Shown one piece after another: positions 1,948-18,172 of a stretch of DNA of 64,000 nucleotides. The first letter of the stretch is position 1, and the number at the start of each line of letters is the position of its first letter. A program made the position numbers and the translations under genes. The stretch is from assembly GCF_050920415.1 (NCBI RefSeq), contig NZ_CP169310.1. One strand, given 5' to 3'. The notes below the pieces were generated by a model. It ran no database searches. It saw only the letters and a list, made by a program, of their open reading frames with translations, and was not told the DNA's origin. This stretch comes from Escherichia coli (GTDB lineage Bacteria; Pseudomonadota; Gammaproteobacteria; Enterobacterales; Enterobacteriaceae).

Positions 1948-2330
1948 ACCATAGATTATGTTTTTCGGGTAAACTCCGGTTACCGTCCTGAATCACCAGC
2001 ACTGACAATGGTGTGAGAGCGGGTGTTTGTCACTATTATTTATGAGTCAGTAAGTCAGAAAAAACATTGGCAAGTGGGGACGTTAAGAAGAAATAACTTC
2101 GCAGATATTTGTATAACGTAAAAATGCTACACGCAACGTATTAAATCTGCCGTACTTCGCCTCAATGTTCAGGGTAAGATTTATGCTCAGTGCGGCAGAT
2201 ATACAAATGAACTCAGCTTTAAGGTTTCAGCTCACAAATCTTAGCATTTGATATTGTATCTTGTTGAAAATGTTGTACTGAATGTATATAAAAACTAAGG
2301 ACACATTATTCTGACTGAATCATTCCTTAC

Positions 2331-2362
2331 CCCTCTGCATGCTCTCAGAGGGATTTTTTTAT
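2331..2362 (+). terminator. Rho-independent terminator
   Basis: Stem CCCTCTG/CAGAGGG followed by T7 run. Confidence 0.5.
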
Positions 2363-2611
2363 TTCCTGAATGAATAATAAAATGAAGGTGCGACTCCGAT
2401 ACCACCATTTACATCATTACCCCTGATATACAGTACCGGAATCGCATTAATATCATGTTACATGTTTTGTTTTTTCATGTCCAGAATAATGGGGGGAAGC
2501 TTCTGTTGCGAAATAATATGCAAATCATGTCTTCTGGTGTTTGTTTTTAACTTATTGTCTTACTTGTGCTTTGCTTATAGTGCCTGATAACTCTTCGGTT
2601 TGTTGTGAGTA

Positions 2612-2638
2612 TAAAAAACCCCTGGTAACTCAGGGGTA
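2612..2638 (-). terminator. Rho-independent terminator (minus strand)
   Basis: Stem ACCCCTG/CAGGGGT preceded by A6 on plus strand, i.e. T-run on minus strand. Confidence 0.45.
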
Positions 2639-3157
2639 AGAGAACAAATGAATGCTCAGTTTATGTTGCACTTTAAACTAATGGAACTATAGAGGAGGTT
2701 GTTACATTTCCACTTATAAATCACCCACTCCTTTTTTGCAATAGATTAATATTAATTGTAAAATTTTTGTGATGTTGATCAGGGTATTTTTAGTTATTTA
2801 TTGACCATGGACTCTGCCATAGTTTCTGCGTATCAACTGATAAGAGATAAGCTTTTGTTTTGAGTTTTTATTAAAAATGCGATTTATCTCACAAAAAAAT
2901 AATCATATAAACATGAAGGAGTTAATGGATAAATGCATATATCTTTAAAGTATTGTGCAGATGGTTATTCTTGTTTTTGTTTACTCGAATGGTTGTTTTG
3001 TCTGATGTGAGTTTATTGATGCGTATTAATTATACGCCAGAAGCTTAAGTTAAGTATTGAAATCAGTGGGCTGTACGGTTAAATTTTTGTTTCAGCGTAG
3101 CTGATTCATCGTTATTCGAATATGACCAACGCACCTGTAATTGTTGTTTCTCTTGGA

Positions 3158-3188
3158 GCCCCCACTTTTTTGTGGGGATTTTTTTATT
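3158..3188 (+). terminator. Rho-independent terminator
   Basis: Stem CCCCAC/GTGGGG with T6 loop followed by T-rich run. Confidence 0.5.
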
Positions 3189-4077
3189 CCATGTGTCGTT
3201 AAAGGGATACACCCGGAATATGTAATTGTTCCACATAAGAAGAATTAAGCTGAATGACATTATGATTAGAAATCGTCTCTCCATGCCTTACATACCAGTG
3301 AACGGATATGTCCATCCGGTTGACTGATGCAGATACATGGGGCAAAAGTGGAGTATACCGACCATGGCTGATAACAGCAAGATGCTCAGAAAAACATGGC
3401 TACACGTTCTTAACCTGACCCTTTTTCCATTCAGATATAATATCTCATCCGTTCAGGTGCGCTCTTCGTTACTCAAAATAATCACAGATTATATCTCATC
3501 CACATAATTACCGGAACCATGAGTTTTCCACGTTACGGATATCATATGTCTGACGTAAAAAACACCAGCTTCCGGAGAGACTTTCTCTGTATCCGAAAAA
3601 GAATGTTTTATAAAACATAGCATTTTCACCATAATGTCCATAGTGCCACGGGGATATAATTTTTGCATCATTCCCTGCTACATTTTTAATCATATTATTC
3701 TGCATACTTACCTGTCGTCGTAATGCAAAACTGCAATTCATCTTCTCTTTGCGGTATAAAAACTCACCATACCTGAAGGCATTAGCATGGTATACGCGGG
3801 TTACAAGTTCCTATGTGCGTATTCCAACTGAACAGCCATCCAGTATATCTGTAAAGAAATAATTAAAATCTGAATTTAATTCCAGTGACAGGGATGTAAC
3901 ATTATTCTTTTTGTAGGGCAGGTAATATGCTTTAAAAGTAATGTCCTCAGGAATATTATCTGTGGCCTGCATTAACTTATATGAAGGAATACTTCCCCGG
4001 ACAGGACAGCTATAATTACCGGCTTGCTTTTGAAAATAAAAATTACCTGTTTTCTTTTCAGATGAATCAGAAAAGAA

Positions 4078-14983: not shown

Positions 14984-15235
14984 TTAAAAAATTAATTTTT
15001 GGTGCGTAACTTGTATAATGGATGAAAACATCTGGTAATATTGTCACAGACGTGAGGAGGCTGCAGATACGGAAGTGTCATACATCAGTATATGCTCATA
15101 TGTCTATCGTCGTGTCTGGACTATACACAGATGACCGTCCCGTAACGAGGAATTGCCTCCGTGAATGCCGCGTTTATCGGATAATGAGTGAAAATAACCT
15201 CTTGTTGTTACATGACAAATCTTTGTGATTGTAGT

Positions 15236-15905
15236 GGATCGGTAATTCAGGACACCTCGAAATCCTGTTAATGTTAAAACAGTGAATGTGAGGGTGATGT
15301 ATGATCAAAACTCGTCGGACTAAACGCACATTTTCCCCGGAGTTCAGGCTCGAAGCTATCGAACAGGTTGTTAAATACCAGCGAGATGCTCGGGAAGTTG
15401 ATCAGGCGCTCTAACTCAACCCTGACCATTTGCGCAAATGGATACGCCTGTACAAACAAGAGATTCAAGGTGTTGAGCCCGTCGGCAAGGCCATTACCCC
15501 TGAACAACGCGAAATTCAGCAGCTTAAAGCGCAGATAAAGCGTCTTGAGATGGAAAAGAAATCCTGAAGCAGGCTGCCGTGCTGATGAGCGAAGCCCCGG
15601 AAAGTTATTGCGCTAATCGCACGGCTCAAAGCAAAGTGGCCTGTGCAGATTCTTTGTTATCTGTTCGGTGTTCACCGTAGCGTTTATTACGCACAGGTGA
15701 AGCGTCCCATTGATGTGCAAAGAATTGAGTTACGAAGTCAGGTGAGAGCGCTTCGTGGCGCTGCGGGTAGTCGGGCAATCAGCCAGATGTTGCGCCAGAG
15801 TGGCGTTGATGCAGGCCGGTGGCTGGCGCGATGACTGATGCAGGAATGTGGACTGGCAAGTCGTCAACCCGTGAAACATCGCTACCGGGCAAACGAAGAC
15901 AACAG
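15236..15905 (+). mobile_element. IS3-family element fragment (degenerate orfA plus 5' orfB)
   Basis: Translation MIKTRRTKRTFSPEFRLEAIEQVV... with internal stops; orfB start ...LCYLFGVHRSVYYAQVKRP. Confidence 0.6.
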
Positions 15906-16639
15906 CCAGGCTGAAACTATGTGATTTCCGTCAACAGTTACTGTTCAGTATTCTCCGTCCATCAATGGATTTAGACGAATATAGTGATATATTATCTAAA
16001 TTATAATAATCTTTATATTTCTGTTTTAAAATGTTTATAAGCTACATCTTATTCCCTACAATATATTCACAAAAATTTGGAATAAAGAATGTCGACCATT
16101 TTTTATAAATTCTGTAGTATGTGACATTGTACCATTTGAAAGAGATAAATTAACAATATAAGAATCATCCTTTATATTATAGATTTCAACAGGATTTACA
16201 TCCCTTTTTTTAGCTGTATCTTTCCGTTTTTTATTAAATATGGGCCTTTAATGGTTCCGCTTTCATATGCAAGTAACATTCTTCTGTATCTTGAGGAAAA
16301 TGCATATGTCTTACTAAAAAAATGAAATCACACTTTATGTCGTTTAATTTGTTATATGTAATCAATACACATGAAAAAACATAATCCATTATATATACTT
16401 CTGTCTGTATTTGAGACTTTATGAATTCAGCTTGAGAAAACTTAAATATATTTTCAATATTTATCTGTATGTTTTATAGGTTTATTTATGAACTTTAGAG
16501 TAAAATTATAACTTAATCTGACATAGGTTTTTATGATATATATCATTGAAATTGTAATTTCATATATATGTATACATGAGAGTGAGTGGCACTGTAAATG
16601 ACCTGAATGCTTCAGGGCTTCACTGCGAAATTCAGGCGA

Positions 16640-16758
16640 ATGCTGTTTACGTGTTTTTTCTGATTGATACTGTTTTTGTCATGTGAGTCACCTCTGACTG
16701 AAAGTTTACTCACTTAGCTGCGTGTCCACTATTGCTGGGTAAGATCAGGTGTCTGGAA
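16640..16758 (-). mobile_element. IS3 left-end remnant (~120 bp)
   Basis: Matches IS3 IRL and start of orfA seen at 13700-13849. Confidence 0.75.
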
Positions 16759-16867
16759 AACAAACCACACTGAGGATGCTTTTTATCCAGTTCGCTGATG
16801 AGACTTCACCAGAACTGTTCTGTTTTTGTGTCTGAAATCGAACAGTTCTGTACAAGACAGGATGCAA

Positions 16868-18172
16868 TAACTTGCTCAGATTAATTCTTCTTAGTGTGGA
16901 ACAATTACGTTTTCCGGGCGTATCCCTTTAACGACACACGGAATAAAAAAATCCCCACAAAAAAGTGGGGGCTCCAAGAGAAACAACAATTACAGGTGCG
17001 TTGGTCATATTCGAATAACGATGAATCAGCTACGCTGAAACAAAAATTTAACCGTACAGCCTACTGATTTCAATACTTAACTTAAGCTCCTGGCGTATAA
17101 TTAATACGCATCAACAAACTCACATCAGACAAAACAACCATTCGAGTAAACAAAAACAAGAATAACCATCTGCACAATACTTTAAAGATATATGCATTTA
17201 TCCATTAACTCCTTCATGTTTATATGATTATTTTTTTGTGAGATAAATCGCATTTTTAATAAAAACTCAAAACAAAAGCTTATCTCTTATCAGTTGATAC
17301 GCAGAAACTATGGCAGAGTCCATGGTCAATAAATAACTAAAAATACCCTGATCAATATCACAAAAATTTTACATTTAATATTAATCTATTGCAAAAAATG
17401 AGTGGGTGATTTATAAGTGGAAATGTAACAACCTCATCTATAGTTCCATTAGTTTAAAGTGCAACATAAACTGAGCATTCATTTGTTCTCTTACCCCTGT
17501 GTTACCAGGGGTTTTTTATACTCACAACAAACCGAAGAGTTATCAGGCACTATAAGCAAAGCACAAGTAAGACAATAAGTTAAAAAACAAACACCAGAAG
17601 ACATGATTTGCATATTATTTCGCAACAGAAGCTTCCCCCCCATTATTCTGGACATGAAAAAACAAAACATGTAACATGATATTAATGCGATTCCGGTACT
17701 GTATATCAGGGGTAATGATGTAAATGGTGGTACCGGAGTCGCACCTTCATTTTATTATTCATTCAGGAAATAAAAAAATCCCTCTGAGAGCATGCAGAGG
17801 GGTAAGGAATGATTCAGTCAGAATAATGTGTCCTTAGTTTTTATATACATTCAGTACAACATTTTCAACAAGATACAATATCAAATGCTAAGATTTGTGA
17901 GCTGAAACCTTAAAGCTGGGTTCATTTGTATATCTGCCGCACTGAACATAAATCTTACCCTGAACATTGAGGCGAAGTACGGCTGATTTAATACGTTGCG
18001 TGCAACATTTTCACGTTATACAAACATCTGCGAAGTTATTTCTTCTTAACGTCCCCACTTGCCAATGTTTTTTCTGACTTACTGACTCATAAATAATAGT
18101 GACAAACACCCGCTCTCACACCATTGTCAGTGCTGGTGATTCAGGACGGTAACCGGAGTTTACCCGAAAAAC
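16868..18172. repeat. AT-rich 1.3 kb module, copy B (inverted relative to 1950-3262)
   Basis: Reverse-complement alignment by eye. Confidence 0.8.

Follow-up and report, generated by a model that had tools for sequence, protein, structure and literature searches.

The small RNAs (sRNAs) known from plasmids, such as ColE2 RNAI, ColE1 RNAI, Rcd, FinP, Sok and CopA, are either cis-antisense to a defined gene (a rep leader, traJ or hok/mok) or made from a cer site. Col156-type small plasmids are called cryptic in the literature; Col156/MOBQ plasmids are among the commonest plasmids of Escherichia coli, and no gene explaining their persistence is found on them (PMC4270462, PMC6856555). Here we describe a relative of the gene-free part of these plasmids on a large virulence plasmid of E. 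coli, in a stretch of 64,000 nucleotides (nt) of contig NZ_CP169310.1 (the window), where a non-coding module is present as two inverted copies (A and B) and a partial copy (C). What is repeated is an accessory cassette, AT-rich and free of genes, and is not an insertion sequence (IS), a replication origin or a leading region. To judge from its sequence, it is an undescribed and probably functional non-coding cassette. The explanation that we consider best, with about even confidence, is that a Col156-homologous cassette was duplicated in an IS-rich region and carries candidate sRNA units.

The original prediction for this locus had described an AT-rich module without a long open reading frame (ORF), present as an inverted pair and, directly after mhbR, as a diverged partial third copy, with at least three hairpin terminators on both strands. 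This description held throughout. A repeat search recovered the pair as three collinear inverted arms of 98-100% identity (1946-2496/17636-18186, 2491-2548/17583-17640 and 2544-3235/16895-17586), and BLAST aligned copy A (1946-3253) with copy B (18186-16876) at 98.1% identity across 1311 columns, with 25 differing positions. The inverted pair is real and cannot be chance. The GC content was 0.351 in A, 0.355 in B and 0.306 in C, against 0.472 for the window. The longest ORF wholly within the module encodes 41 amino acids (aa), and a 73-aa ORF (3063-3284, minus strand) exits copy A into a flank unlike that of B, so that the two copies share no such ORF. The terminators are located at 2331-2352 (plus strand, T1), 2637-2618 (minus strand, T2) and 3160-3177 (plus strand, T3). 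Copy C was detected by nhmmer (E = 4e-64) with 80-86% identity to module positions 2154-2549, and the boundaries first proposed for it (11819-12225) are close to those determined here (11837-12231). It starts 23 nt past the end (11814) of the LysR (mhbR-like) gene and is followed by a remnant of an IS1414 end (12236-12314). In copy C the -10 box of the promoter-like sequence P1 is deleted and the stem of T1 is weakened; it is a decayed relic, older than the A/B pair. A profile scan of the whole 64 kb revealed no further copies.

A BLASTN search of the module against plasmid databases, which had been proposed together with the original prediction, matched an unannotated segment of Col156 plasmids. 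In distant mode 306 plasmid records were matched, mostly Col156 MOBQ plasmids of ~5.1 kb, with ~71% identity over query positions 83-1238. These small plasmids, such as pJJ1886_2 (NC_022649.1), pMNCRE44_3 and pKGu016_4, are typed Col156/MOBQ (ColE2-type, MOBQ4-like) and encode a ColE2-type Rep, MobA, MobC and two or three small hypothetical proteins. The matched 1.1 kb is their sole gene-free part and was never annotated in the records examined; likewise, the module is without annotation in every record examined, RefSeq included. We used one Col156 plasmid (L005) as the reference for Col156 sites. The core of copy A (2028-3238, plus strand) is homologous to L005 3473-4602 (plus strand), with 66-70% identity overall and 78-87% in conserved blocks. 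The two elements share ~1.15 kb of homology in equal block order, with three equally oriented terminators, promoter-like boxes, an invariant 19-mer and the inverted repeat of block 5 (Table 1). Unlike the Col156 segment, the module occurs two or three times on a plasmid, lacks the backbone genes, has lost two terminator-like sites (T0 and a weak one after block 5) and reaches at least 230 nt farther left in its ancestral large-plasmid context. None of the Col156 backbone genes (rep, mobA, mobC, orf177, hyp69 and hyp102) was found in the window by tblastn or blastn. Therefore, the module is not a cointegrated plasmid, and only the gene-free cassette is shared; an integrated small plasmid was rejected on the blank tblastn result with these six genes. 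The Col156-homologous cassette lies alone, without rep and mob, in an IS-rich region, where it was duplicated in inverted orientation with one edge set by the end of an IS2-like element.

Concerning distribution, 322 of the 5426 complete E. coli genomes carry the Col156 version. The large-plasmid version, at high identity, was found on plasmids of 27 of them, at one to five places per genome. With all lineages combined, 354 genomes have the cassette, and 507 of its 508 places are plasmid-borne. In a search of 100,044 species representatives, the 19-mer was confined to Escherichia, barring one probable contaminant contig and two chance matches. This contig, of 1247 bp in a Streptococcus parasanguinis assembly (L010, NZ_WMZH01000013.1), is 99.8% identical to the Col156 cassette, and is almost certainly contamination. 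No match was obtained in 50,697 phage records in distant mode, and a phage origin was rejected on this result. A metagenome scan added intermediate variants and no new context. Fragments are found on other plasmids as well: the first ~560 nt of the cassette in an IncHI plasmid (L007), the first 198 nt of the module ~500 bp upstream of plasmid-borne type VI secretion system (T6SS) clusters (L089 3501-3705 and L090 3501-3701), and module positions 2834-3010 upstream of another T6SS cluster (L009 4001-4176). The T6SS-linked fragments, on other IncF plasmids, lie 0.5-1.7 kb upstream of tssB/tssC clusters. Another observation concerns 7.4-kb relatives of the Col156 plasmids (L006, L013 and nine metagenome loci, e.g. 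L029, L040 and L041), which carry an ArsR/SmtB-family regulator and an FAD-dependent oxidoreductase within the cassette. This cargo is placed between block 5 and the T2 unit, and spacer sp4 is thus a cargo insertion point.

In the literature, we found no paper joining Col156 with sRNA. Searches on Col156, ColE2 and small or cryptic plasmids gave background papers only, plasmid names gave no functional information, and the conserved module sequences were found printed in no paper. Searches on Col156 with RNA-seq, including one preprint, gave nothing on function. Homologs of hyp69 were found almost exclusively in the same cryptic plasmids, and the idea, traced through hyp69, that the cassette takes the place of the colicin operon of ColE2-type colicin plasmids is conjectural.

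Known classes of element were then considered. The module is neither a known IS nor the untranslated region of a gene. An IS or a miniature inverted-repeat transposable element was ruled out, as no ORF within the module exceeds 41 aa and the A/B repeat does not stop at the ends of an element. The homology runs at least 150-230 nt farther left in other plasmids and also continues leftwards beside copy B, and the repeat search reported no terminal inverted pair joining the ends of one copy. The left edge of copy A adjoins the outer end of an IS2-like (IS3 family) remnant (1686-1945), which sets this edge. A tRNA or tmRNA was not found, and Rfam 15 gave no match at the gathering threshold in the 64-kb window and none at E <= 1 in 1800-3500. 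An iteron-type origin was ruled out, as the segment has no repeat families and no conserved DnaA boxes or sites for IHF. In L005, a sequence at ~910-948 is what we take to be the ColE2-like origin, a type of site recognised by the Rep primase. The ColE2-type origin is a 32-bp site just downstream of rep (PMC6856555); the module homolog is located at L005 3473-4602 and the window has no rep gene, so that this class was also ruled out. The only good cer-like Xer core in the Col156 plasmid, GGGGCGTACAA-CGGGAG-TTATGGTAAAT, is at L005 4983-5010, outside the module, and a cer-like site was ruled out for the module on this ground. Sites of this kind consist of a XerC arm, a spacer of 6-8 bp and an XerD arm (TTATGGTAAAT type), with ~180 bp of accessory sequence. 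In a manual comparison with consensus sequences, which carries little weight, block 5 fitted the Xer arms only with an extra base.

The original prediction had also offered a relic of a plasmid leading region. Such a relic would hold ssi signals or single-strand promoters that are switched on early in the recipient. Like the Frpo-type promoters and ssi signals of such regions, the module is non-coding, hairpin-rich plasmid DNA; it is AT-rich and resides on a conjugative IncF plasmid, and block 5 could form a hairpin in single-stranded DNA. This part of the prediction was not borne out. The origin of transfer (oriT) of Col156/MOBQ4 plasmids is the 176-178-bp mobC-mobA intergenic region (PMC6856555), which in L005 corresponds to 1518-1693. 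The homologous Col156 accessory segment is ~1.8 kb from oriT on either side (more than 1.7 kb), and in none of the contexts seen is the module adjacent to oriT. Its neighbours in the window are toxin genes, a catabolic operon and remnants of ISs, with no gene of the ssb, psiB or ardA type alongside. The hairpins, moreover, have GC-rich stems followed by T runs, the form of transcription terminators. We ruled out an oriT or leading region on its location and gene content, and consider a relic of one to be hardly probable.

The anatomy of the cassette suggests a row of short transcription units, of which three would be intact here (Table 1). Each would consist of a promoter-like box, a conserved body of 40-70 nt without an ORF, a pyrimidine-rich motif, and a Rho-independent terminator with a long U tail. 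T1, T2 and T3 each have a GC-rich stem of 6-7 bp followed by six or seven T, and all are conserved in Col156. Terminators are in modest excess in the module (3 vs 1.1 +/- 1.0 in shuffled sequences) and in strong excess in the Col156 segment (5 vs 0.6 +/- 0.7), which has two more terminator-like sites on the minus strand, T0 next to hyp69 and the weak one after block 5. A motif rich in pyrimidines, CUCCUUAC, UUCCUUAC, UCUCUUAC or UUUCUCUUGG, precedes each terminator. These motifs resemble the 3' end of 16S rRNA, CCUCCUUA (anti-Shine-Dalgarno). The promoter-like -35 and -10 boxes are spaced by 17 nt, and their distance from the terminators fits the 50-150 nt expected of the promoter of an sRNA gene. 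P1 and P2 do not have the T at the sixth position of the -10 box, and only P3 and P5 pass a promoter scan. The -10 box of P1, TATATAAA, is kept in nearly all of 34 distinct variants, the exceptions being copy C and two single variants. The fold z-scores of the three bodies were -2.3 (sRNA1), -2.0 (sRNA2) and -2.0 (sRNA3). In a metagenome Col156 variant (L083), the region aligned to 3128-3185, the 3' half of sRNA3 (ACAACCTGTAATTGTTGTTTCTCTTGG plus the terminator), is tandemly duplicated.

Table 1 Features of the module, its Col156 counterpart and the surrounding region. Mismatch refers to copy A vs Col156.
Feature	Position	Strand	Mismatch	Remarks
Module copy A	1946-3253	+		Non-coding, 35% GC; inverted repeat with copy B at 98.1%; no RefSeq annotation
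Module copy B	16876-18186	-		Inverted relative to A
Partial copy C	11837-12231	-		Decayed; matches module positions ~2154-2549; oriented as B
Ancestral left flank of module, 44 nt	18187-18230	-		Kept only beside B
Block 2 (TTTGTATAACGT...GCACGCAAC...CTGCCGTACTT)	2089-2170		18%	Spacers ~50%
Block 3 with 19-mer AGCTTTAAGGTTTCAGCTC	2209-2235		15%	Invariant in all lineages found by BLAST; 1 mismatch in C
P1 promoter-like, TTGAAA-17-TATAAA	2264-2292	+	29%	Precedes candidate sRNA1
Candidate sRNA1, ~60 nt	~2299-2360	+	19% (with T1)	Includes T1 (stem 2331-2352 and run of 7 T)
Block 5, inverted repeat TCCGaTACC-N29-GGTACCGGA	2393-2450		23%	Conserved in all lineages; imperfect in A, perfect in B
P5 promoter-like, TGGACA-17-TAACAT	2483-2455	-		Leftward, antisense to candidate sRNA1; scan flags homologous positions in module and Col156
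Candidate sRNA2, ~95 nt	~2706-2612	-	13% (body and T2)	Includes T2 (2637-2618); CCUCC near 5' end; most conserved stretch
P2 promoter-like, TTGCAA-17-TATAAG	2741-2713	-	33%	TTGAAA-17-TATAAA in Col156
P3 promoter-like, TTGAAA-17-TAAATT	3057-3085	+	52%	Scan-flagged; TTGAAT-17-TAATTA at Col156 equivalent
Candidate sRNA3, ~94 nt	~3092-3185	+	20% (with T3)	Includes T3 (3160-3177)
Main spacers sp1, sp2, sp4, sp5			47-52%	Plus many gaps
Short spacer sp3			27%	
P1 and candidate sRNA1 of copy B	17772-17868	-		100% identical to those of A
P2 and candidate sRNA2 of copy B	17389-17518	+		CCUCC changed to CCUCA
P3 and candidate sRNA3 of copy B	16945-17073	-		sRNA3 body 100% identical to that of A
sta1 (heat-stable enterotoxin)	638-856 and 19714-19932			RefSeq annotation
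IS1414 (IS256-like) transposase gene with embedded EAST1 enterotoxin gene astA	4480-5688			
Gentisate/3-hydroxybenzoate operon with LysR regulator	5789-11814			RefSeq annotation

Conservation was examined in an alignment of five large-plasmid copies (clade 1, 93-98% mutual identity) and six Col156-lineage variants (clade 2, 86-100%), the latter including intermediates recovered from metagenomes. Between the clades, conservation is blockwise: each terminator is kept together with the 40-70 nt that precede it, as are the promoter-like boxes, while the spacers show ~50% mismatch. As the blocks were chosen from this very comparison, it is circular, and we relied on two within-clade tests that are independent of the choice of blocks. 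Within clade 1, 7.2% of the unit columns were variable, compared with 13.6% of the spacer columns (p = 4.5e-4); within clade 2, the values were 11.6% and 21.1% (p = 2e-5). Only 1 of 99 columns of candidate sRNA3 was variable among the large-plasmid copies. One pair in the T1 stem changes from C-G in the reference to U.G (L039) and U-A (L035), and hairpin 2 of sRNA3 shows two wobble changes besides one compensatory A-U/G-C double change. Support is good both for the terminators and for selection on the sequence just upstream of them.

Taking these results together with the anatomy, we propose that the units are candidate sRNA genes of ~60, 95 and 94 nt, an assignment that we hold tentatively, at slightly less than even confidence. 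Two marks of a trans-acting (Hfq-type) sRNA gene were found: T1, T2 and T3 are all Rho-independent terminators whose U tails number six or more, and there is no conserved ORF while the bodies, including CCUCC and the UUCCUUAC-type motifs, are near-invariant. The likeliest function would be that of small base-pairing RNAs acting in trans on ribosome-binding regions. As in the plasmid sRNAs mentioned above, the units are short, non-coding and end in Rho-independent terminators, and their pyrimidine-rich, anti-Shine-Dalgarno-like stretches would suit pairing with ribosome-binding regions. They differ from those sRNAs in that no conserved ORF or rep leader lies opposite them, the cer-like site and rep control of Col156 are outside the cassette, and no Rfam family is matched. 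Of the alternatives in the original prediction, a regulatory or sRNA cassette is thus the one favoured, on the conserved terminators and upstream bodies, the promoter-like boxes and the absence of an ORF, with the two atypical -10 boxes counting on the other side.

A number of observations weigh against this assignment. The -10 boxes of P1 (TATAAA) and P2 (TATAAG) are without the highly conserved T at the sixth position; the promoter scan flags only P3 and P5, leaving P1 unflagged; and the counts of promoter-like sequences are not above those in shuffled sequences (5 vs 6.4 and 4 vs 4.4). No Rfam family matches even at E <= 1. Against 106 translation-initiation regions of the window, the duplex energies were not above those of shuffled-sRNA controls, and no target stands out. 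Covariation is thin: among ~6 independent, closely related lineages, sRNA3 and T1 have a single clean compensatory pair each, and none was seen in sRNA2 within the aligned variants. The clade 1 test becomes weaker once noisy 'tail' columns at the right end are dropped, and spacer sp4 is as invariant as the units within the large-plasmid clade. T0, intact in Col156, has been disrupted in every large-plasmid copy by the loss of 5 nt, indicating some decay here. The RNAs are candidates, proposed from sequence.

Several of these points would be expected of an inert relic, non-functional AT-rich DNA carried along by IS rearrangements and on the small-plasmid backbone. In such a relic, the blocks would reflect limited divergence time or uneven mutation, and the terminators would be leftovers of vanished genes. 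The visible decay of copy C and T0, the fragments scattered in other plasmids upstream of T6SS clusters, the imperfect promoters and the lack of annotation, Rfam match and detectable target are all consistent with this. On the other hand, the spacers are near saturation (47-52% mismatch plus gaps) while terminators and adjacent bodies keep 80-87% identity, substitutions within the clades are depleted in the units independently of block choice, and stem changes are compensatory. In addition, a multicopy plasmid of only 5.1 kb keeps the 1.1 kb (~22% of its length) at 99-100% identity in hundreds of isolates. We regard an inert relic as unlikely, though deserving of consideration.

A further possibility is that the cassette acts in cis, as DNA, either as a terminator array shielding the mob genes and the ColE2-type control region of rep and RNAI from read-through, or as a site for recombination, priming (ssi) or protein binding (block 5 or the 19-mer, for example). 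The terminators alternate in strand (T0 minus, T1 plus, T2 minus, T3 plus), and in Col156 the cassette exactly separates the side of hyp69 and mob from that of cer and rep. The arsR and FAD-dependent oxidoreductase insert of the 7.4-kb relatives fits a tolerated, insulated cargo slot, and block 5 and the 19-mer are conserved in sequence without RNA covariation. However, insulation leaves unexplained why the 40-70 nt upstream of the terminators are conserved best (13% mismatch in the sRNA2 body), and why two or three copies are retained on large plasmids without rep and mob; nor does the module have an Xer core, iterons or a DnaA-box cluster. A cis-acting role of this kind appears somewhat less probable again than an inert relic.

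A coding function was also considered. We compared every small ORF across lineages and found none that is conserved. The reading frame over the 19-mer differs between lineages, so that the 19-mer is not coding, and a Cys-rich 25-aa ORF at 2933-3010 is lineage-specific. In the commonest Col156 variant, a 55-aa ORF (L005 3646-3813, plus strand) with the hydrophobic stretch IFISWLVVVLVLYVY ends exactly at T1. This ORF, together with a P5 transcript that would be antisense to sRNA1, raised the possibility of decayed protein genes or of a type I toxin-antitoxin system, a small hydrophobic peptide with its antisense RNA. Yet the ORF is truncated in L070 and has no start in L073, and a frame shift and a stop interrupt it in every large-plasmid copy, those of the window among them; as it is broken in these lineages, it is probably not functional, and might at most encode a lineage-specific small membrane peptide. 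The remaining small ORFs are unconserved, the invariant 19-mer falls in differing frames, and no known antitoxin RNA is matched in Rfam. A type I toxin-antitoxin system was rejected on the state of the 55-aa ORF, and this explanation as a whole is very improbable.

Returning to the candidate sRNA units, a bolder form of the proposal is that the cassette is a cargo made of RNA only: a small island in which three to five sRNA genes act in trans through seeds resembling the anti-Shine-Dalgarno sequence. This island would be the sole accessory load of Col156 plasmids and would have been captured, duplicated and kept under selection on plasmids of Shiga toxin-producing (STEC) and enterotoxigenic (ETEC) E. 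coli. We consider this form possible but doubtful. If true, cryptic plasmids would gain a function, the reprogramming of translation of the host or of co-resident plasmids, which would explain their persistence. Col156 plasmids are present in ~6% of complete E. coli genomes, and about one-fifth of their length is this cassette. Its blockwise conservation and the multiple diverged copies on toxin-bearing plasmids turn 'cryptic' into a testable hypothesis with respect to transcript ends, sizes and strands. If the units are unexpressed, the finding shrinks to an ordinary IS-era repeat; the IS-driven repeat structure is in itself ordinary, and the novelty is the repeated, undescribed cassette.

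We also examined the history of the repeat. The single-copy plasmids pHNSHP24-2, AP025742 and AP042571 carry the flank found beside B (18187-18230 and beyond) and the B-type diagnostic bases. In these plasmids and in the T6SS-linked fragments, the flank and at least 150 nt more precede the module. Copy B carries the ancestral-type bases at the equivalents of 2107-2129 and 3191-3211. As the single-copy plasmids share both flank and bases with B, B is ancestral and A is derived. In the sister plasmids CP012501 and CP012498, A, C and B are ordered and oriented as in the window, and CP042296 has lost both C and B here, beside an IS1. Across 2465-3097, the A and B copies of CP012501 have private variants in common, and the distance between them (25) is smaller than that between its A and the A (33) or B (50) of the window. 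In CP012498, 2519G and 2994C are common to both copies, the shared patches being smaller. The outer diagnostic sites (2107-2129 and 3191-3211) remain A- or B-specific. Private variants shared between copies whose outer sites are copy-specific indicate gene conversion between A and B. Furthermore, in OkiPb01710 (L092, NZ_AP042667.1, 18884-19100), one of nine otherwise near-identical plasmids from Okinawa cattle that have this arrangement, 124 nt of the right flank of B (18184-18307) are replaced by the reverse complement of 214 nt of the IS2-like left flank of A (1732-1945), with CCAG microhomology at the junction. This is a recent templated copy, by repair or template switch, from A into B.

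It had been suggested that the inverted pair could mediate inversion of the intervening segment. If the two 1.3-kb copies crossed over, the 13.6 kb that they enclose would be flipped, which is plausible mechanistically, and the copies do recombine, as seen in the gene conversion and the templated flank copy. The inverted isomer itself was not seen: a chimeric probe consisting of the left flank of A, the module and the reverse complement of the left flank of B had no full-length match in the 5426 complete E. coli genomes, and every plasmid examined with both copies is collinear with the window. The A/B pair is thus recombinationally active, and the 13.6-kb inversion is unobserved. In its length, 98% identity, concerted evolution and templated flank copy, the pair resembles the long inverted repeats behind RecA-dependent, IS- or rrn-flanked inversions and gene conversion; unlike these, it has no isomer in complete assemblies, and the repeat is neither an IS nor an rRNA operon. 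The 98% inverted homology over 1.3 kb and the active recombination would also be compatible with a programmed switch that flips the 13.6-kb gentisate segment. Against a switch, only transposase remnants and no site-specific invertase are annotated nearby, A-B is collinear in the four sister plasmids compared, and the A- and B-type diagnostic sites at the two repeat ends remain linked, so that no past crossover is visible. A site-specific invertible element was rejected on the annotation and the lack of an isomer, and the chance that the pair is a programmed switch is slight in the extreme. The inverted copies constitute an active recombination substrate near two enterotoxin genes, which matters for plasmid assembly and structural stability.

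The window derives from a large IncFIA/FIB conjugative STEC/ETEC virulence plasmid with ehx, two sta1 genes, astA and the gentisate operon, and is 99.8-100% identical to pCFSAN004180G (NZ_CP012500.1) and pCFSAN004181P (NZ_CP012499.1), from E. coli of cattle and food. The module region is rich in IS3, IS91 and IS21 remnants according to the RefSeq annotation. The remnant of an IS1414 end immediately after copy C is 94% identical to 4437-4515. Direct repeats with 93-96% identity are present at 13711-13859 and 16611-16757, and the sister plasmid CP012501 (L086) is without exactly the 2.75 kb between them (13860-16610), suggesting a deletion by repeat recombination. The sta1 genes (STa, NTFYCCELCCNPACAGCY type) reside in two 100%-identical 1.2-kb segments (236-1448 and 19311-20524; in a wider alignment, 1-1686 vs 19273-20762). 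These are directly oriented and lie on either side of the entire 19-kb region that includes the gentisate operon and the copies of the module; if they recombined with each other, this region would be deleted or amplified in tandem. Farther along the window are fdnGHI, a polysaccharide cluster, an S6 peptidase and F4-like fimbrial genes. The complete gentisate/3-hydroxybenzoate operon and the full formate dehydrogenase-N (fdnG, fdxH and fdnI; ~23900-28500) are unusual metabolic cargo for a virulence plasmid that carries toxin and haemolysin genes.

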